Positions 42,112 to 54,732 of a stretch of 64,000 nt of DNA are shown in pieces. The stretch covers positions 2,421 to 66,420 of the forward strand of contig JBFWZE010000001.1 of NCBI GenBank assembly GCA_050185685.1. The letters are read 5' to 3'. The translations under genes were made by a program, and so were the position numbers. Position 1 is the stretch's first letter, and each line of letters begins with the position of its first letter. The notes below the pieces were generated by a model, which saw only the letters and a list, made by a program, of their open reading frames with translations, was not told where the DNA came from and did not search any database. The stretch is from Dehalococcoidia bacterium (GTDB taxonomy: Bacteria > Chloroflexota > Dehalococcoidia > DSTF01 > WHTK01).

Positions 42112-43716
42112 TTAGACCTCGATTGGCTTCAAAATGAGCGCCGTGTCAGGGACCACCTGCGAAGCACCGGCAATCGCCTGCTCGGTGCGGACCTTGCCCG
42201 GCACGACGACCGCTGCGAACACCGCAGCCAAACCGAGGAGCACCGCGCTGGCAATGAAGCCCGTCGTGAATGCGTCGACGAAGCTCGCCTGGGCCGCAGC
42301 CAGCAGAGTCGACTGCATGTCGGCGGGGAGCGATTGCGCGAGGACGGTCGCAACTCCGATGCCCTCGCTCGCCGGGTGCGCTACTTCGTGAGGCACGGTC
42401 GCGGCGAGTGCCGCCTCGACGTTGGCGCGATAGAGGGAGCTGACGAAGCTGCCTACTGCTGCGATACCGAGCGCGGACCCGAGCTCGCGGCTCACGTCAT
42501 TCAGGGCCGAACCGACACCGGCGTCGTCAACGGGGACGGCCGCCATCACCATGTCGGTCAGTGGCGCCATGCCGAGGCCGCCGGCGAGGCCGAACAGTGC
42601 GAGGTTGAGGATGATGCGAATCGTCGAGCTGTCAGCTTCGATCTGCGAGAGCAGCGCGACCGCAACCGCAACAACAGCAACCGCTGAACTGATAAGAAGC
42701 TTCGGTCCGACTCGGTGGACGACAGCGCCGGAGATCGGGGCGCCGATCATCATCGCGAATGCACAGGGAAGTCCCAGCAGGCCGGCCTCGAAGGCGGAGC
42801 GGCCCTGCACAAGCTGGTAGAACTGTGTCAGGAAGAAGAACACGACGGAGATGGCGAAGAAGACCGTGCCGACGATGACCACGCCGGCGGTGAAGTCACG
42901 TTCGCGGAAGAACTGCATCGGCAGCATTGGAGAAGACGCGCGGCGTTCGACGATGAAGAACAGGAGGCCTGCGACCGCCGACACTGCCAGGGATGCGAGG
43001 ACCTGGACGTCGGTCCAGCCGTGCTCGCCGCCGGCGATGATGCCGTAGACGAGAGTGCCGAGCGTAATGGTCCCGGTGATCGCGCCGGGGATGTCCAGGG
43101 CGCGGGGGCGCGGGTCGCGAGATTCCGGGACGATGGTGAGACCTGCGAGCGCGGCCAGGACGACCGGGACGTGCAGGAAGAAGATTGATGACCAGCCGGT
43201 GTGGTCGACGAGGTAGCCGCCGAAGGCCGGACCCATGCCCATCGCAAGGGCGCTGACGCCGGTCCAGATGCCGATGGCCTTGGCGCGCTCATCACGCGGG
43301 AAGACGTTGGTAATGATTGAAAGGGTTGCTGGCATGACGAGCGCGCCGCCGACACCTTGCAGGGCACGGAAGCCGATGAGCTGCTCTGCGCTCGTCGCGA
43401 GGCCTGCGCCAACAGACGCAGCGCCAAAGATGACCATGCCGGCAGTCAGCCAGCGCCGCCGGCCAAAGATGTCACCGATCGTCCCGCCTACCAGCAGGAG
43501 GCCGGCAAGCATCAGGACGTAGCCGTCGACGATCCACTGCATCTCGCCGGTGGACGCGCGCAGGTCGCGTGCCATTGACGGCAGCGCCGTGTTCACAATC
43601 GTGTTGTCGAGCATCAGCATGAAGATGCTGAGCGACATGACTGCGAGGATGGCCCAGCGGCGCGGGTGGCCGCTGGACTCCTCGAACTGCTCAAGGACAT
43701 TGTTCGTGGTCTTCAT
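42112..43716 (-). CDS. DHA2-family (EmrB/QacA-like, 14-TMS) MFS efflux transporter
   Basis: 534 aa. MLMLDNTIVNTALP and GDIFGRRR motifs of drug:H+ antiporter-2. 40-nt gap to the upstream Cys-rich gene. Confidence 0.85.
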   Translation of the reverse strand: MKTTNNVLEQFEESSGHPRRWAILAVMSLSIFMLMLDNTIVNTALPSMARDLRASTGEMQWIVDGYVLMLAGLLLVGGTIGDIFGRRRWLTAGMVIFGAASVGAGLATSAEQLIGFRALQGVGGALVMPATLSIITNVFPRDERAKAIGIWTGVSALAMGMGPAFGGYLVDHTGWSSIFFLHVPVVLAALAGLTIVPESRDPRPRALDIPGAITGTITLGTLVYGIIAGGEHGWTDVQVLASLAVSAVAGLLFFIVERRASSPMLPMQFFRERDFTAGVVIVGTVFFAISVVFFFLTQFYQLVQGRSAFEAGLLGLPCAFAMMIGAPISGAVVHRVGPKLLISSAVAVVAVAVALLSQIEADSSTIRIILNLALFGLAGGLGMAPLTDMVMAAVPVDDAGVGSALNDVSRELGSALGIAAVGSFVSSLYRANVEAALAATVPHEVAHPASEGIGVATVLAQSLPADMQSTLLAAAQASFVDAFTTGFIASAVLLGLAAVFAAVVVPGKVRTEQAIAGASQVVPDTALILKPIEV

Positions 43717-43756
43717 CTCGTTATCCCTTTCGCTTGTCTCTGACTGACCGAGGGGG

Positions 43757-44149
43757 CTAGGCGTGAGTCACGGCCATGCCGGCGCAGGTGCAAGACGCCT
43801 GCTCACACCCGCAAGCGCTGCAGGTGTTGACGCCCGCGCAGGAGCACTTCACGCACTCGCAGACGCCGGCCGATGCCGCGCAGGTGCAGGTTTCGCCCGA
43901 CGCGCACGAGCACTCGCCGAGGTGGCAGGAAGCGCCGCAGAAGCAGGGGTCGCAGGCGCATCCGCCGAGCGAGTCGCAGTCGCAGGCTTCGTTCGATGAG
44001 CAGATGCAGGCGGCGCTGGTTGCGACGACGCCGCAAGAGCAGTCAGTACAGCCGCAGGTCGTGCAGTCGCACTGCTCGGTGCAGGAGCACTCGTTGCAGA
44101 TGCAGACGGCGTCGATCCGGTTCGGGAGGGTCCTGGCGATGGTGTTCAT
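43757..44149 (-). CDS. Cysteine-rich protein (130 aa, 32 Cys, about 15 CxC motifs), metallothionein-like
   Basis: AAGGAG ribosome-binding site 9 nt before the ATG at 44149. MNTIARTLPNRIDAVCICNECSCTEQCDCTTCGCTDCSC...CSACGCEQASCTCAGMAVTHA. GC-rich TGC codons match host usage. Sits between the GNAT and the MFS genes on the same strand. Confidence 0.6.
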   Translation of the reverse strand: MNTIARTLPNRIDAVCICNECSCTEQCDCTTCGCTDCSCGVVATSAACICSSNEACDCDSLGGCACDPCFCGASCHLGECSCASGETCTCAASAGVCECVKCSCAGVNTCSACGCEQASCTCAGMAVTHA

Positions 44150-44219
44150 TTCGAGGTTCTCCTTGCTTTCTTGCTGATGTGCTGGGTGGATTTCGATGGA
44201 CGTCACTTGAGGTGTCTCC

Positions 44220-44864
44220 TTAACGGGCCGGCACGATGGCGCAGGCGCAGCCACCGGATGCTGTCTGAGGCCGCTCGCAGCAGCAGCCGTCGCAGCCCCA
44301 GCAGGGGTCGAGGTCGCTGTCCGCAAGCCGGATGCGGAAGACCTGGCTTGCCACTTCGGTGCGCTCCTGGTCTTCAAAGGGAGCGAGGGCCGACCTGCCG
44401 CTCTCGTCGAAGGACAGCTCAGCCACCGGCACGAAGCCGGCGCGCTCGATGCCGATCCCGGAGGGAAGGTTCTCGGGGGCGAAGAGGATCCAGACCCTTG
44501 TTGCCGGAGGGCATTCGCGGCGGATGATCTCGGCCAGGAGCTGCGGGTAGATCCCGCGGCCACGAAAGCCAGGCAGCGTCGCGAAGTCCCACAGGTAGCG
44601 GTGACCGGCAGGCAGCTGGACTTCGAGGTCCAGCTCGCCGATCGAGGCGTTTCGCGTCGCCACCCAGCCATAGCCGGCCGGCTTGCCTTCCAGCATCGCG
44701 AGGTACGGCCGGTGTCCGTCCCGCCTCCGCCGCGTCACTTCGTCAATTGAGAGGTTGGCGATGCGGGCCAGCAGACCGTCATCGGCGGCCGCTTCGACCG
44801 TCAGGCCGGGCTGCAGCGCCAGGTGAGGAAGTCCGTCTTCGTACCACCAGGTTGCGAGTGCCAT
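44220..44864 (-). CDS. GNAT-family N-acyltransferase with a Cys-rich C-terminal tail
   Basis: GGAAGGAGA ribosome-binding site. GNAT motif A LPGFRGRGIYPQLL. The C-terminus DPCWGCDGCCCERPQTASGGCACAIVPAR has 8 Cys in 30 residues. Confidence 0.65.
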   Translation of the reverse strand: MALATWWYEDGLPHLALQPGLTVEAAADDGLLARIANLSIDEVTRRRRDGHRPYLAMLEGKPAGYGWVATRNASIGELDLEVQLPAGHRYLWDFATLPGFRGRGIYPQLLAEIIRRECPPATRVWILFAPENLPSGIGIERAGFVPVAELSFDESGRSALAPFEDQERTEVASQVFRIRLADSDLDPCWGCDGCCCERPQTASGGCACAIVPAR

Positions 44865-45031
44865 CTACTTGTCTCCTTCCTGTTTGTTTCTGCAGTCAGG
44901 CTAGGAGTGGCACGAGAGGGTGAAATCACACCGATGGGTGAAGCCGAAGGGTGATTGCGAGCGATTGAACGGGTGGGTACACACCCGGGGTTGGTAGACT
45001 TGCGATCGTTCTGAGGGAGGAACCCCGATCC

Positions 45032-47689
45032 ATGGTCGAGTCGGCGCCGGCTCCGCTACTCGAGACCAAGCTGCGGCCGCCGCACGCGCGAGAGTCCGTT
45101 CTGGCTCGACCTCGCCTCGTCGAATTGACTCAGCGCGTCCTCGAAGTGCCGCTCACCCTGGCGGCGGCGCCCGCCGGGTTCGGAAAGACGACGCTTCTTC
45201 TCGATTGGTACAACCGGCTACATCCGCATGCACGGGCCTGGGTGTCACTCGACGAGACCGATAACGATGCGGACCAGCTGGCGCTGTATCTGCGTACCGC
45301 TGTGGGCCGGACCCTGAAAGACGCGGTGCTGGAAGGCGAGCAGTTCTCGCTCGAGGCGACCGTCGCGGAGTTCGTGAACCGAACGGCGGCCAGCAATGAG
45401 CCGCTCATCCTCTTTCTCGACGACTATCACCTCATCGAATCCCCTCGGGCTCACGCGGCGCTAACCTTCCTCCTCGAGCATCAGCCGCCGGCGTTCCACC
45501 TCGTCCTGGGCACCCGTCATGACCCGCCGCTGCCCCTGGCTCGTCTGCGCGCTCGCGGGCGTCTGCTCGAGGTACGTGCCGAGGACTTGAGGTTCACGTC
45601 CGAGGAAGCGGACGGCATGCTCCAGGAACTGATCCCTTTCGACCTCTCCAGCGAGCAGCTGCGGGCACTCGAAGAGAAGACGGAGGGGTGGGCGGCAGCG
45701 CTGCAGCTCGCGGCGCTTTCACTGCAACGTTCGACGAACGCCGGCGCCTTCATCGAGGCGTTCAGCGGCTCGAATCGATTCGTCTTCGACTACCTGGCCG
45801 AGGAGGTCTTTCAGCGGCAGGACGCGGAGACGCAGACCTTCCTTCAGCAAACGGCGATCCTCGAGCGCCTCACCGGTGGCCTCTGTGACGCCGTCACCGG
45901 GTTGCCACGGGGCGACGTACGGCTGTCGGATCTGCTCAGGGCGAATCTCTTCCTGAATGCCCTCGGGGACGAAGAGCGCTGGTATCGCTACCATCACCTC
46001 TTTCGCGATTTCCTTCGCCGCACGCTTGAACAGCGCATGCCCGATGGGGTCCGTGGCCTGCACCGGCGCGCTTCCGAGTGGTTCTCTGCGAACGGCTTGC
46101 TGGACGAGGCGGTGGCACACGCGGTTGAGTCGGGCGATCAGGCCCTCGCCCTCACGCTGATCGAGCGGGGAATGCCTGCAGTGACGATGCGCGGCGACTT
46201 CCTTACGCCTGCTTTCGAGCGATGGATGGGGAGCTTGCCGCGGGACGAGGTCTATCGGCGGCCTCGCCTTGCGTTACCTCGGGCGCTAGCCTCTGCCCTG
46301 AGAGGCAGAGTCACAGAGGCGGAGCAAGTCGTAGACCGCGTCTCGAGGGTGGTCCTGGGGCAGGAGGCGCTGCCGCATGAAGCCGATGAAGACGAGCGCC
46401 GTGCGTTCTTCGGAATGCTGCAGACGGCAAGGGTCTACATCGCACGGTTCCGCGGCCGCCCGGACGAAGCGCTGGAGATCGCGGACGCGACGATGACCGA
46501 ACTCCCGCCTGAGGAGCCCGCACGCGCCTGGCTCGGCATGGTGCGACAGATGGTGCTGTTCGAGAAGTGGGCGCCGGACCTCGACGTGACGCTGGAGCAG
46601 GCGGCGCGAGTGTGTTTCAGCCAGGGGCACCTCGGGGGCGCAGTTGGCCTCCTCAATTTCGAGTTTTATCGCCTCGTCCTCTGCGGGCGGCTCGTCGACG
46701 CCGGAGACCACCTTCGCCGGTCCTTCCAGCGTGCGTATGACCATCATGCTCTGCCCGTCGTAGGCATGCTTCACGGAGCCCAGTCTGAGCTTCACTACGA
46801 GCGCGGTGAGCTGGACGACGCGGAAGAGGAAGCAAACCGCTGCCTTTCTTTTGGCGCGCCCGGTTTCACTCCCGGTGTCTTCACTCCGCCGGAGCTGACG
46901 CTCGCTCGTCTGCAGATCGCGGATGGCAGGAGCGACGAAGCGCGGGAATCGCTGCGGCGGCTCGAGGACCGGGCGCGACCGGTTGAAACGGTGCAGGGCC
47001 TGCGCTCCTACCCCGCCTTCATCGCCGACGTCCGCCTTCGGCTCGGTGACCTCGAAGGTGCGATGCGCTGGGCTGAGGCGTGCGGCGTCGGTCCCGACAC
47101 GCAACCCGATTTCGAAAACGAGTTCGTCTGTCTTGTCTACGCGCGTGTGCTCCAGGCTTCGGGCCGCGGCAGTGAGGTACTGTCGCTCCTCGCCCGCCTT
47201 CGGGAGGCGGCGAGCGATGCCGGGCGCCAGGGCCGCGTCGTGGACGCGTGGCTCATCGAGGCATGCATCCACTGGCGCAACGGTGACCAGCGAACGGCGA
47301 TGAGCACCCTAAACCGAGTGCTTCCCGTTGTGGAGCGTGAAAGGTATGTGAGGACACTCCTCGACCTCGGCCCGCCGATGCTGACGATGCTACATGAGGC
47401 CGCCGTCGGCGGCCCGCACGCCGCCTACGCATCGCAGCTGCTTTCGCTTGCCGGTGAAGAGGTATCGCCGTCAGCGCGTGCTCGGACAGCGAGCCCGGAC
47501 GATCTCAGCGAACGTGAGCAGGACGTGATCCGCCTGCTGGCGAAGGGCTACGCGAACCGCGAGATCGCCGACGAGCTTGTAGTCTCGCTTGATACGGTGA
47601 AGACGCACCTTCGCAATGCCTACATGAAGCTTGGCGTTCACAGCCGCACCCAGGCGATCACCAGGGCCCAGGAGCGCAAGCTGATCTAG
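45032..47689 (+). CDS. LAL-family (MalT-like) large ATP-binding LuxR regulator (paralog 2)
   Basis: P-loop [11 protein letters not shown], and a C-terminal Lux[47 protein letters not shown] ribosome-binding site. Confidence 0.85.
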
Positions 47690-48077: not shown

Positions 48078-49400
48078 TCAGACGCGGTCCTCGGGAAGCG
48101 ATGGCCGGTTGCTCTTCAGGTCTTCCCAGCTCTCAGCCGCCATCCAGGCCGCCCAGTTGCGGTAGTGCCAGAGCTGCGCATGCTCGTTCACGCCGGTGAG
48201 GATGTAGCCCGGGCCGGTCTCGTCGCGCGTCACTTCGCCGTGGCCGAGGTTCATCGCGTAGTGGAGCGGGAACTTCGAGCTCATTACGCCCGACATCGCC
48301 CGCGTGCTCTCGCCCCAGTTCTCGCCGTCCTCCTGCTCCAGCATGCCTGCCGGGCCGAAGACGTGGTTCGCCATGCCGACGAGCATGCGGTGGTGCTGCG
48401 GCGGCAGCTCCTTGTTGAGGACCGTGAACCACCAGATCTCGGTGCTGTAGGGGCCTTTGGGGTGGCGCAGGCTGATCTGGCTGCTGCCGGTTGCGACCCA
48501 CATGTTCGGGAAGATATGCGGGTGACCGGCCGCCTTTGCGCCGACGGTACCGAGCGCCTGCTTCGCCTCCGGCCGCTCCTGCCATGAGGGGTCGTTGCCA
48601 ATCTTGCGCAGGAGCCGCTCGCTCTCGCCGAGCATCGCTGGGCCGCCGATCGCGTGGCCGTAGTCACCCAGCACGGCGATGTGCTCCGGGAAGTACTGGT
48701 TGTCCTTGCGCTCGAAGGGGAACATGCCGGTGAGCACCGCGGACGAGTGAGTCAGCGGCGCGTGGTACCAGTCCCAGACGTTGTCGGCGGCGAACTTCCA
48801 GTTGCAGGGGATCGTGAACTTCTGAATGCCGCCGACGATCGCCATATCGCCGCGCATTGCCAGCTCATCGATCGAAAGCCGGCCGACGTCGCCGAGGTAC
48901 TCGTCGAGGTCCGGCGCCGTCTCGTCCATCGTCGCAAAGACGAAGCCGTGGTAGCTGTCGACCTTCGCCGCCTTGATCAGGCCCCAGTTCTCGCGGTCAA
49001 GCTCCTCGTGGTAGACCTCCTTGAAGCCCGGTACACCGACGAGGTTGCCCTTCAGGTCGTACGTCCAGCCGTGGTAGGTGCACATGAATGACGTCGCATG
49101 ACCTTCTTCGGCGCGGCAGACGGCATTGCCTCGGTGACGGCAGCTGTTGATCAGCACCTGCGGCTGCATGTCGTTGTCGCGAACGACGATGACGCGGTCT
49201 TCGCCGATGAAGGTCATGAAGAAGTCGCCGGGGTTCGGGATCTGGCTGTCGTGGCACATGAAGTTCCATGCGCGCGCGAAGATGCGCTCTAGCTCGACCT
49301 GGTAGATGTCGGGGTCGGTGAAGATACGCCGGTCGACGACCGCCTTCTCGCCATCCACGAAGCGCAGGAAGTCTTTCGGCTGGTTCAGTTGTAGTGTCAC
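48078..49400 (-). CDS. Rieske non-heme iron ring-hydroxylating oxygenase, alpha subunit (paralog 3). Its N-terminal Rieske domain is near-identical to paralog 1.
   Basis: CRHRGNAVC...CTYHGW motif and Fe ligands DNVWDWYH...THSS. GTG start with an AAGGGAGA ribosome-binding site. It lies 34 nt downstream of the solute-binding-protein gene. Confidence 0.85.
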   Translation of the reverse strand: MTLQLNQPKDFLRFVDGEKAVVDRRIFTDPDIYQVELERIFARAWNFMCHDSQIPNPGDFFMTFIGEDRVIVVRDNDMQPQVLINSCRHRGNAVCRAEEGHATSFMCTYHGWTYDLKGNLVGVPGFKEVYHEELDRENWGLIKAAKVDSYHGFVFATMDETAPDLDEYLGDVGRLSIDELAMRGDMAIVGGIQKFTIPCNWKFAADNVWDWYHAPLTHSSAVLTGMFPFERKDNQYFPEHIAVLGDYGHAIGGPAMLGESERLLRKIGNDPSWQERPEAKQALGTVGAKAAGHPHIFPNMWVATGSSQISLRHPKGPYSTEIWWFTVLNKELPPQHHRMLVGMANHVFGPAGMLEQEDGENWGESTRAMSGVMSSKFPLHYAMNLGHGEVTRDETGPGYILTGVNEHAQLWHYRNWAAWMAAESWEDLKSNRPSLPEDRV

Positions 49401-52769: not shown

Positions 52770-53618
52770 TTAGTGGGTCGAGATGAAGAGGTCGACGAGC
52801 TTGTTGAACTCGTCGGCGTGCTCGATCTGGGCCCAGTGGCCGCAGTGGTTGAAGACCACCAGGGTGGAGTTCGGCAGCATGCTCAGGAGGCGGATGCTGC
52901 CCTCCATCGGCACGGTGCGGTCGTCGCGTCCCTGGATGATCAGAGCCGGGGTGGTGACCTTCATCAGCTGCTCGGTGAGCGAGGCCGGGAAGCCACCGTC
53001 CGCGGGCTTCATCCAGTTCGTCAGGTGGGTGCGGTTCTTCAGCGCGGCGTCGGAGCGCGCCTTGACCAGCTCGTCCGTGACGAAGGAGCTGTCGTAGACC
53101 ATGACGCGGACCAGCTTGCGGAAGTTCTCCGGCGACGGGTCGGCGTACGTCTCACGCAGGACCTGCATGCCTTCGCTCCAGCCACCGACCTGGAAGCCGT
53201 TCGGGCCCGGGGCGGGAGCGCCCATCGTGATGAAGTGGGAGATGCGGTCCGGGTAGTCGACGGCGAACTGCTCGACGCACATACCGCCCATCGAGTTGCC
53301 GACGAGGGCTGCCTTCTCGAGGCCGAGCTCATCCATCAGCTGAACGACGGCGCGGGCGTTTGCCTTGGTGCGCGGCTCCGTGGTGGGGTCGAACTCGCTG
53401 GAGTCGCCCCAGCCGGGGAACGTCATCGCGATTGCGCGGTACTTCTCGGAGAGAGGGCCAATGTTCGGGTAGAAGTTGCTCCAGCCCGTGGCGCCGGCGC
53501 CGGTGCCGTGGAGCATGATTACCGGGTGTCCCTGCCCGGCCTCGTAGTACTCAATCGTGAAGTCTTTAGTCTTTACGAGCTTCTTGGTGCTCTCTGCCGT
53601 AATCGGAGCAGCGGTCAA
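52770..53618 (-). CDS. Meta-cleavage product (C-C bond) hydrolase, BphD/TodF/MhpC family
   Basis: Alpha/beta-hydrolase fold with GNSMGG nucleophile, HG oxyanion motif, and C-terminal HCGHWAQ. AGGAGGAA ribosome-binding site before a TTG start at 53618. Confidence 0.85.
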   Translation of the reverse strand: MTAAPITAESTKKLVKTKDFTIEYYEAGQGHPVIMLHGTGAGATGWSNFYPNIGPLSEKYRAIAMTFPGWGDSSEFDPTTEPRTKANARAVVQLMDELGLEKAALVGNSMGGMCVEQFAVDYPDRISHFITMGAPAPGPNGFQVGGWSEGMQVLRETYADPSPENFRKLVRVMVYDSSFVTDELVKARSDAALKNRTHLTNWMKPADGGFPASLTEQLMKVTTPALIIQGRDDRTVPMEGSIRLLSMLPNSTLVVFNHCGHWAQIEHADEFNKLVDLFISTH

Positions 53619-53790
53619 TTGATTCCTCCTGAGGTGAAACAACGCGGGGGAGCTTCAGAGTTATAGCATTTCTTTGAGCACTACGACCGATTGACCGCTA
53701 CTGCGACCTCCCAAAGTCTTCTCAATGTCGCTAAGATGGCCTCGCCTCGATATGAGGCACGTCCCGCGCAACTCATTGGAGGAAGGTCTC

Positions 53791-54732
53791 ATGGGAGTAA
53801 CGCAACTCGGTTACCTCGGCATTGGCGTCAGCGACCTTGACGCGTGGAGCGACTACGTCACCAACGTCCTGGGCCTCGAAATTGCCCAGCGCGAGGAGGA
53901 TGGCTCGATGCGCCTGCGCATGGACCAGTACTCCTACCGCTTCATTCTGCACCCGAGTGGTGAGGACGACCTTGTCTTCACGGGCTGGGAGGTCAAGGAC
54001 GAAGAGAACCTTCGCGACGTCGCCGCTACCCTGCGCGCGAACGGCGTCGAGGTCACCGAGGGCACGCCGGACGATCTGCGCGCCCGCAACGTCATCGGAC
54101 TGATCAAGTTCACCGACCCGGCGGGCCTCGCGACCGAGGTCTTCTACGGCCCGTACCTCGACAAGGTGCGGCCGTTCAACTCGCCGCGCGGCATCACCGG
54201 CTTTGAGACCGGCAACAACGGCAACATGGGCCTCGGCCACATCGTCGTCGGCGTGCCGGACCTCGGCGAATGCATGCACTTCTACCGTGACCTCCTCGGC
54301 TTGAAGATCAGCGACTACATCGACCTCAGCTTCGGCCCGATGGAGATGCGCGTCGCCTTCTTCCACGCGAACGAGCGCCACCACTCGATTGCCTTCGGCG
54401 GGCCGCTCAACCCCGGTGCCGGTCCGGCGACCCTCGGCGGCGCCGGCCGCAAGCGCCTCAACCACTTCATGCTCGAGCTGAAGTCGATCGACGACGTCGG
54501 CATCACCTACGACATGATCAACGAGAAGGGCATCAGCGCCGGCAAGCTCGGCCGCCACACCAACGACCACATGTTCAGCTTCTACATGCAGACGCCCTCC
54601 GGGTTTAACGTCGAGTACGGCTGGGGCGGCCGCCACGTCGACGACAACGACTGGCAGGTGCAGTACTACAAGGACGCAAGCATCTGGGGCCACGGCTTCG
54701 CGCCGCCGCCGAAGGACCCGGTCACTGCCTAG
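53791..54732 (+). CDS. Type I extradiol ring-cleavage dioxygenase (catechol 2,3-dioxygenase/2,3-dihydroxybiphenyl 1,2-dioxygenase-like, VOC fold)
   Basis: GGAGGAAGG ribosome-binding site. MGVTQLGYLGIGVSDLDAW...LGHIVVGVPDL...HHSIAF...HFMLE, with two VOC modules and the Fe ligands His, His and Glu. Confidence 0.85.
   Translation: MGVTQLGYLGIGVSDLDAWSDYVTNVLGLEIAQREEDGSMRLRMDQYSYRFILHPSGEDDLVFTGWEVKDEENLRDVAATLRANGVEVTEGTPDDLRARNVIGLIKFTDPAGLATEVFYGPYLDKVRPFNSPRGITGFETGNNGNMGLGHIVVGVPDLGECMHFYRDLLGLKISDYIDLSFGPMEMRVAFFHANERHHSIAFGGPLNPGAGPATLGGAGRKRLNHFMLELKSIDDVGITYDMINEKGISAGKLGRHTNDHMFSFYMQTPSGFNVEYGWGGRHVDDNDWQVQYYKDASIWGHGFAPPPKDPVTA

Follow-up and report, generated by a model that had tools for sequence, protein, structure and literature searches.

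The cysteine-rich open reading frame and its operon

The sequence analyzed here is a stretch of 64,000 nucleotides (nt) from a Dehalococcoidia bacterium (GenBank assembly GCA_050185685.1, contig JBFWZE010000001.1, positions 2,421 to 66,420 of the forward strand), which as a whole is called the window in the following. On its minus strand, an open reading frame (ORF) at 43757..44149 encodes a predicted protein of 130 amino acids (aa) plus stop, with a mass of 12.8 kDa and an isoelectric point (pI) of about 4.1, in which about every fourth residue is cysteine. This Cys-rich ORF lies between the gene for a GNAT acetyltransferase (44220..44864, minus strand, 214 aa), which is the first gene of the operon, and the gene for a DHA2-family efflux transporter of the major facilitator superfamily (MFS; EmrB/QacA-type with 14 transmembrane segments; 42112..43716, minus strand, 534 aa). 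A MalT-like STAND/LuxR (GerE) regulator of 885 aa is encoded divergently on the plus strand (45032..47689). We argue that the Cys-rich ORF is a genuine gene that is mis-annotated in public databases, and that its product is a candidate for a new kind of metallothionein (MT)-like protein.

The uninterrupted minus-strand translation of 43757-44149 is MNTIARTLPNRIDAVCICNECSCTEQCDCTTCGCTDCSCGVVATSAACICSSNEACDCDSLGGCACDPCFCGASCHLGECSCASGETCTCAASAGVCECVKCSCAGVNTCSACGCEQASCTCAGMAVTHA. It holds 32 cysteines among 130 residues (24.6%), which are arranged in 15 CxC, 6 CxxC and 2 CxxxC motifs without a single CC pair; 30 of them are encoded by TGC and two by TGT. An earlier note, made from the letters of the window alone, had described a 130-aa protein with 32 cysteines and about 15 CxC motifs, and the translation reproduces these figures. 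Among the other residues are one Phe, two His, one Lys and two Arg. Across nine neighbouring genes cysteine makes up 0.76% of the residues, and at this frequency at least 32 cysteines in 130 residues are expected with a probability of about 2e-38; hence, the composition is not a product of chance. The cysteines are distributed over several blocks. A Cys-free N-terminus (residues 1-15) is followed by an N-terminal block with 10 Cys (residues 16-39), whose pattern of about ten cysteines can be written as CxCxxCxCxxxCxCxxCxCxxCxC. The central module (residues 56-82, 9 Cys) includes GGCACDPCFCGASC, and the C-terminal module (residues 88-115, 9 Cys) is followed by a short tail with a further CxC motif (CTC).

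The translation start is well defined. A Shine-Dalgarno sequence AAGGAG at 44159-44164 (minus strand) precedes the ATG (44147-44149) by 9 nt, as had been noticed before, and the surrounding block AAGCAAGGAGAAnnTCGAr-ATG is nearly invariant and present in all four lineages in which the gene was found (see below). An alternative in-frame GTG lies 19 codons before the ATG (44204-44206, minus strand), has its own AAGGAG and would add a Cys-free N-terminal extension of 19 residues. It is less likely to be the true start, because insertions and deletions between the lineages are not multiples of three in this part, and the stretch behind the GTG more likely represents a conserved non-coding leader than coding sequence. 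The nucleotides of the 70-nt spacer between the GNAT stop codon and the Cys-rich ORF (44150-44219, minus strand) are well conserved, as in CA(C/T)CAGCAAGAAAGCAAGGAG, and in each lineage the spacer contains a second AAGGAG followed by an in-frame GTG, ATG or TTG. This part could serve as an alternative start or belong to a regulatory leader. An Rfam search of 43500-45200 returned no RNA family.

The gaps around the Cys-rich ORF are short, 70 nt to the GNAT stop codon and 40 nt to the MFS start, in line with the tight operon spacing already claimed, and a search of the minus strand of the operon for terminator-like sites found none. The Cys gene thus appears to be co-transcribed with the GNAT and DHA2 MFS genes, the latter of which is preceded by a purine-rich ribosome-binding region of its own.

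Assignment of the coding strand

A second frame is open on the opposite strand. This antisense ORF (43776..44177, plus strand, 133 aa; counterpart at 6599-7000 of contig L001) shares its third codon positions with the Cys frame and is rich in Gln and His, because TGC read backwards gives CAx. Its G+C profile over the three codon positions (0.66/0.46/0.87) looks more like that of an ordinary coding frame than does the profile of the Cys frame (0.45/0.69/0.89), in which the first two values are distorted by the TGC codons. The high value at the third position of the Cys frame fits the genome, so that the GC-rich codon usage ascribed to the ORF is borne out there. The NCBI annotation calls the antisense ORF as a hypothetical protein in two Dehalococcoidia metagenome-assembled genomes (MAGs; MGE0685142.1 and MGE3984069.1; cluster representative MGE0057560.1), and it is the gene call on the near-identical contig of GCA_050179895.1 (L001). 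Because the shadow frame is open, has the more normal G+C profile and is the one annotated at NCBI, a test of the coding strand was necessary.

The comparison of the four lineages decides in favour of the Cys frame. It is open in all of them despite length differences between 130 and 205 aa, it is preceded by the conserved Shine-Dalgarno sequence and ATG, and the gene calls of the Logan assemblies take it in L002, L009, L010 and L018. In contrast, the antisense frame is interrupted by internal stops in L009 and L018, has neither a conserved start nor a conserved Shine-Dalgarno sequence, and would lie convergently within a three-gene operon. Its richness in Gln and His, which gives it the look of a low-complexity protein, is the mechanical product of TGC in reverse. 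The pattern of substitutions points in the same direction. Across the four lineages, 26 of the 32 cysteines are invariant versus 12 of the 98 other residues, and between the window and its orthologue L007 amino-acid changes affect 1 of 32 Cys versus 32 of 98 non-Cys positions (Fisher p = 4e-4). For the same pair, the ratio of nonsynonymous to synonymous substitution rates (dN/dS) is 0.25 in the sense frame, the lowest among all six frames, and 0.34 in the antisense shadow, which is only modestly worse. It is hardly credible that the Cys frame is the shadow and that expression is confined to the annotated Q-rich ORF of the plus strand or does not occur at all, even if the choice of the NCBI pipeline in two MAGs and the more coding-like G+C profile speak for it. 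Judged from the antisense stops, the conserved start region and dN/dS, the Cys frame rather than the overlapping Q-rich ORF is the predicted gene, as had been supposed, and NCBI carries the wrong strand. The conservation pattern demonstrates selection on the Cys positions at the level of the compared sequences.

Homologues and evolution of the Cys-rich family

Homologues of the Cys gene were found in two ways. A tblastn-confirmed scan of metagenome contigs yielded an orthologue of 130 aa with 75% identity (L007/L008), and the neighbourhoods of GNAT homologues added further members with 137 aa (L018) and 205 aa (L009/L010). In all four lineages the gene is situated between the GNAT and MFS genes and on their strand. 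The family members range from 130 to 205 aa and from 12.8 to 20.9 kDa, with 29-43 Cys (21-25%) and 12-20 CxC motifs, and alignment scores within the family are z = 9-16 above those of composition-matched shuffles. The N-terminus MN(T/I)I is conserved in three lineages and L018 starts with MTNI; the Cys-free N-terminal stretch is 15-23 residues long across the family, and a hydrophobic signal sequence does not occur in its members. Aromatic residues number 1-3 per member, and Lys is found 0-1 times at a position that is not conserved. Both His residues that the earlier note had listed, H76 in CHLGEC and the C-terminal H129, do exist in the window protein; neither is kept in the homologues. On the contig of a closely related strain (GCA_050179895.1; L001 6627-7019), the protein differs by K101T and G114W only, by which all Cys are kept and the sole Lys is lost.

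The best-conserved motif of the family lies in the central 9-Cys module and reads E-A-C-x-C-x-x-L-G-G-C-[AT]-C-[DA]-[PS]-C-[FL]-C-G-A-x-C-x-[LI]-x-x-C-x-C. In the 205-aa member from L009 the central module is duplicated in tandem (the two halves align with z = 11), hence the family grows by module amplification. The residues between the cysteines evolve fast: the nonsynonymous rate (dN) at non-Cys positions is 0.20, compared with 0.05 for the adjacent GNAT in the same genome pair.

This conservation also bears on the possibility that the ORF has mainly a regulatory role, in that its 32 Cys codons would sense the supply of Cys-tRNA and tune the expression of the downstream MFS gene. Cysteine-responsive attenuation via Cys-rich upstream ORFs is documented, with a precedent in mycobacteria (bioRxiv 10.1101/834739), and like those polycysteine small ORFs the Cys-rich ORF precedes another gene of its operon, ending 40 nt before the MFS start. 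However, the known attenuators are very short and contain consecutive Cys codons, whereas here 130-205 codons are found and the window copy is without any CC. Moreover, the Cys register is conserved together with the non-Cys positions of L-G-G-C-x-C-D-P-C-x-C-G-A, which indicates selection at the protein level, and the MFS gene has its own ribosome-binding region. Such a function, for which the documented cases would be the analogy, is therefore considered very improbable.

Protein databases gave a misleading picture of the family. Searches with the Cys protein, namely a word-indexed search, an exhaustive phmmer run over 1.84 billion representatives and a search with a profile built from three members, returned zero matches. 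In an exact look-up in a collection of 15 billion proteins, the Cys proteins were absent and the antisense ORF was present. Local phmmer comparisons between family members gave 41-48 bits after bias correction, which is above search thresholds. Since the Cys proteins are missing from the collection searched, the empty protein searches say nothing on the rarity of the family. The family probably escaped notice so far because the antisense strand is the one that gene callers pick, so that its proteins do not enter the databases. A scan of the contigs of GTDB species representatives with the single protein and the profile found no relative, a tblastn search of plasmids gave no match, a PDB sequence search returned nothing at E<=10, and literature searches on Chloroflexota and metallothionein brought up nothing relevant. 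The known distribution is narrow and comprises uncultured Dehalococcoidia-like bacteria. Judged by these comparisons, the Cys-rich ORF founds a small, previously unrecorded family in uncultured Dehalococcoidia-like Chloroflexota.

Comparison with known metallothioneins

By composition, MTs are delimited by a high Cys content of about 15-33%, with 16-32% reported (PMC4862169), and the values of the window protein (24.6%) and of the family (21-25%) fall into both ranges. A second hallmark, positionally conserved CxC and CxxC motifs, is seen in the 26 of 32 Cys that are invariant over the four lineages, and the 1-3 aromatic residues per member are likewise in keeping with MTs. The mass of 12.8-20.9 kDa exceeds that of classical and of all known bacterial MTs and lies within the range of modular eukaryotic MTs (PMC4755600). 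The predicted proteins hence have the composition that defines MTs, yet they fit none of the described MT families.

The earlier note had proposed to look for homologues among the Pfam MT families. Four family members gave no Pfam match at E<=10, and NCBIfam gave no match of any kind. The same Pfam tool assigned the positive controls, SmtA (identical to PDB chain 1JJD) and wheat Ec-1 (identical to 2KAK), to PF02069 with 4.5e-21 and to PF02068 with 1.9e-26, respectively. Smith-Waterman alignments with SmtA, Ec-1 and Pseudomonas MT reached z = 1.5-3.6 over shuffles. Because these scores barely exceed what composition gives, homology to the three proteins is not demonstrated. A short motif of 8-9 residues, C[AT]C[DA]PC[FL]CG, echoes CACEPCLC of SmtA and CGCNPCACG of Ec-1. 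Membership in the SmtA/BmtA family (PF02069) was rejected, as there is no profile match, the alignment is limited to the CxCxPCxC stretch, and conservation of His76 and His129 is lacking; membership in the plant PEC/Ec family (PF02068) or in other Pfam MT families was rejected for lack of a match at E<=10.

The likeness to SmtA/BmtA proteins consists in a bacterial origin, a cytoplasmic location, Cys richness and the correspondence of CACEPCLC with the family motif C[AT]C[DA]PC[FL]C. SmtA has 55-56 aa with 9 Cys and 2 His, which bind a Zn4 cluster; its fold is zinc-finger-like and includes a conserved contact of Tyr31 with Ala37 (PMC3323870, PMC10119931), and canonical bacterial MTs have about 60 aa and 16% Cys (PMC13578184). 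In contrast, the Cys-rich family has 130-205 aa and 21-25% Cys, no conserved His and no SmtB-type regulator, and it lacks the features of the zinc-finger-like core, i.e. hairpin, helix, Tyr31/Ala37 and His ligands (PMC3323870). In one practical respect both groups are alike, because annotation readily overlooks SmtA/BmtA MTs, too, and TBLASTN-type searches are required to find them (PMC3323870). Plant Ec-1/PEC proteins are also CxC-rich, and CGCNPCACG of Ec-1 resembles GGCACDPCFCG of the window protein, however, the conserved His ligands of Ec-1 are absent from the Cys-rich family.

A resemblance in design exists to large modular MTs of eukaryotes, such as CnMT1 and CnMT2 of Cryptococcus with 122 and 186 aa, TmMT of Tremella with 257 aa and the CdMTs of Tetrahymena with up to 193 aa (PMC4755600, PMC4862169). 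They share with the Cys-rich family the size range, the Cys content (16-32% among MTs; PMC4862169), a build-up from repeated Cys modules and growth through duplication in tandem (PMC4755600, PMC4862169). The earlier statement that the window protein is far larger than known MTs had been made for bacterial MTs; it stands for these and does not extend to the eukaryotic modular proteins of 122-257 aa. The modules themselves differ, since those of eukaryotes are a 7-Cys unit CXCX3CSCPPGXCXCAXCP or contain CCC/CXCCX motifs, and homology between the two groups was not detectable. The resemblance is probably a shared design that arose by convergence.

A metallothionein-like reading and its alternatives

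We consider a new modular, acidic, MT-like metal-thiolate protein the best reading of the Cys-rich ORF, with a probability of roughly 55%. It is favoured because of the Cys fraction and the CxC/CxxC spacing, the fixed Cys register with variable spacers, the few aromatic residues, the duplication of modules and the absence of a signal peptide. The earlier assignment as MT-like is supported in all compositional respects and fails where it would tie the protein to a described MT family. A reduced cytoplasmic protein of such Cys composition binds Zn(II), Cu(I) or Cd(II) by thiolate chemistry. That the protein binds metal is what we infer, and the same holds for the identity of the metal and for any tie to the GNAT or MFS. 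In this scenario metal-thiolate clusters would form, in which the reduced thiolates of the CxC/CxxC-rich modules with 9-10 Cys each enclose Zn(II), Cd(II) or Cu(I), and the chain would adopt a fold only around the bound metal. By analogy with known MTs, 32 Cys might accommodate some 10-11 divalent ions or, with Cu(I), as many as about 20. The operon is probably controlled by the divergent MalT-type activator, and the Cys-rich protein would probably be a sequestering or buffering component that was added to a pre-existing stress or efflux module.

The AlphaFold2 model of the single window sequence has a mean predicted local distance difference test score (pLDDT) of 47.6, no confident fold and almost no helix. 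The absence of a confident apo fold is the expectation for a protein that folds only around metal; taken alone, the low confidence of the model is uninformative. A copper storage protein (Csp) was rejected as an explanation. Csp is a four-helix bundle with Cys lining its core, whereas the model here is almost without helix, albeit at low confidence, and the Cys spacing is CxC and not the helical i/i+3-4.

Several observations weigh against the MT-like reading. Besides the missing Pfam and NCBIfam matches and the alignment scores close to composition, the charge of the family is unusual: its members are acidic with almost no basic residues, and the pI of the window protein is near 4, unlike the MTs described so far, in which Lys is much more frequent than Arg (PMC4862169). 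Genes for P-type ATPases, CDF transporters, CopZ, ars or mer functions were not found in the locus, nor were genes for metal-sensing regulators of the ArsR/SmtB, MerR or CsoR types. The neighbours are instead a MalT-type regulator, a generic GNAT, a drug-type MFS transporter and catabolic genes, and the GNAT-MalT-MFS module usually occurs without the Cys gene. The genomic context is thus the weak point of the MT-like reading.

It is this context that keeps another explanation serious, namely that the protein, being rich in thiols, serves as a scavenger of an electrophile, an oxidant or a thiol-reactive toxin, or as a sacrificial sponge for it, and acts in a detoxification or self-resistance cassette together with the GNAT and the MFS. 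The conserved combination of MalT, GNAT and DHA2 drug-type MFS genes, with or without an ABC-2 exporter, resembles a cassette for small-molecule resistance and efflux. The Cys gene is inserted exactly between GNAT and MFS in four lineages, no metal-related gene is nearby, and AAC(6') aminoglycoside acetyltransferases are among the folds nearest to the GNAT. However, strict CxC positions and the GGCxCDPCxCGA motif fit the geometry of a metal cluster, and a bulk thiol reservoir needs neither. Furthermore, the reduced protein would bind Zn or Cu in the cell anyway, and our literature searches gave no precedent for such a protein sponge. We therefore regard the sponge as unlikely, though clearly the strongest competitor of the MT-like reading.

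The acetyltransferase and its module

The GNAT that precedes the Cys gene is Cys-rich at its C-terminus as well. The Cys tail to which the earlier note had alluded is present (CWGCDGCCC...CAC) and contains 7 Cys in DPCWGCDGCCC...GGCACAIVPAR (about 44223-44309, minus strand). About 700 GNAT homologues were found, mostly in Chloroflexota, and a C-terminal motif with 5-8 Cys, PCWxC...C(W)...CxCA, is conserved in most of those listed (P0001-P0120). The structural model of the GNAT has a pLDDT of 89 with a disordered Cys tail (AlphaFold). Foldseek with this model returned generic GNAT matches only, the nearest being VipF and AAC(6'), which do not indicate the substrate, and a PDB sequence search with the GNAT gave only spurious or weak matches. 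In this uncharacterised acetyltransferase family, the Cys tail may be an appendage that binds metal or senses the redox state. An origin of the Cys gene from this tail found no support, since the similarity between both is not above composition (z <= 3.1).

At the GNAT loci, a MalT-like regulator in divergent orientation and an exporter of the DHA2 MFS and/or ABC-2 type are almost always nearby, and the MalT-like regulator adjoins the GNAT in every locus examined. The pair of MalT-like regulator and Cys-tailed GNAT recurs across Chloroflexota MAGs with rearranged gene order (42112-47689 in the window; L003, L005, L009, L011, L013). From its gene content, the MalT-GNAT-exporter module looks like a resistance or efflux cassette. 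PADLOC found no defence-system match for the Cys protein, the GNAT or the MFS, and for the MalT-like regulator it gave weak matches only, which are restricted to the C-terminal residues 822-880.

The Cys gene is present at 4 of roughly ten distinct GNAT loci read, all of them with a GNAT at least 70% identical to that of the window, and absent at six loci with a GNAT of 58-65% identity (L003, L005, L011, L013, L015 and L019). Homologues of the Cys gene stand next to GNAT and MFS genes, which the earlier note had asked to check, wherever the gene was found, i.e. in four lineages; the reverse does not hold, since the module is widespread without the gene. The Cys-rich gene is accordingly best described as a lineage-restricted addition to an older regulator-acetyltransferase-exporter module, as far as synteny can tell. 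Because the module usually occurs without it, the role of the gene in the module would be accessory, and a link of the module to metals is purely what we infer. At one more distant locus (P0006; JGI 3300071358, a contig of 5512 nt), a GNAT of 66% identity is followed 18 nt past its stop codon by an opposite-strand call of 130 aa, which runs into the contig end. Here, too, a Cys-rich gene could have been mis-called on the antisense strand, and the family would then reach to more distant GNATs.

The distribution of the GNAT also bears on the idea that the Cys protein is a substrate of this enzyme, as already mentioned in the earlier note, or a partner of it, either as a protein that is acetylated at its N-terminus or as a ribosomally made precursor peptide that is modified and then exported by the MFS transporter. 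The Cys gene is always directly downstream of the GNAT and upstream of the exporter, its Cys-free N-terminus of 15-23 residues (about 35 with the upstream start) is leader-like, and MN(T/I)I is conserved at its beginning. However, most of the about 700 members of the GNAT family occur where the Cys gene is missing, so that their primary substrate must be another one. Lys is present 0-1 times and not conserved, and MFS pumps are not known to export proteins of 13 kDa. A precursor of a ribosomally synthesized and post-translationally modified peptide (RiPP) was rejected in particular: no maturation enzyme (radical SAM, cyclodehydratase, LanM-type lanthionine synthetase, peptidase) occurs at any locus, only the GNAT, the MFS and the MalT regulator are conserved around the gene, and a core of 115-180 residues far exceeds typical RiPP cores. 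A role as substrate or partner of the GNAT is thus highly improbable.

Implications and wider neighbourhood

To our knowledge, bacterial MTs are few, small (about 55-80 aa) and limited to a handful of families. If the protein is an MT, the modular design with 130-205 aa and 25% Cys would represent an independent invention of the tandem Cys-module principle that has so far been seen in fungi and ciliates. By sequence criteria, the members of the Cys-rich family would be by far the largest bacterial MT-like proteins. The more far-reaching proposal is an unrecorded high-capacity bacterial MT family (13-21 kDa, 29-43 Cys, duplicating 9-Cys modules) that is wired to a regulator of the MalT type, an acetyltransferase with a Cys tail and an exporter of the drug type instead of a metal sensor; it is tentative and somewhat easier to doubt than to assert. 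If it were true, a metal-thiolate protein would be put to a physiological use not described before, such as sequestration that is coupled to an efflux or detoxification module. From the operon context, thiol-rich proteins and efflux systems of Chloroflexota could also turn out to be connected in a new way. If metal binding is true, the estimated 10-20 ions per chain could be of interest for bioremediation and metal capture.

Apart from the function, the locus points to a blind spot of genome annotation. Where a genome is high in G+C, a gene rich in TGC gives rise to a plausible Q/H-rich ORF on its antisense strand, and the pipelines prefer this ORF. Cys-rich proteins may thus be missing from protein databases, and further families may be hidden in the same way.

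Beyond the operon and the divergent regulator, the wider neighbours encode a luciferase-like monooxygenase, a Rieske oxygenase, a peptide-binding protein, a MarR regulator, hydrolases and an extradiol dioxygenase. Among them, the alpha subunit of the Rieske ring-hydroxylating oxygenase is located at 48078-49400 (minus strand), an alpha/beta hydrolase at 52770-53642 (minus strand) and the extradiol (BphC-like) dioxygenase at 53725-54732 (plus strand). The predicted oxygenase, hydrolase and dioxygenase suggest that a region for the degradation of aromatic compounds flanks the operon.

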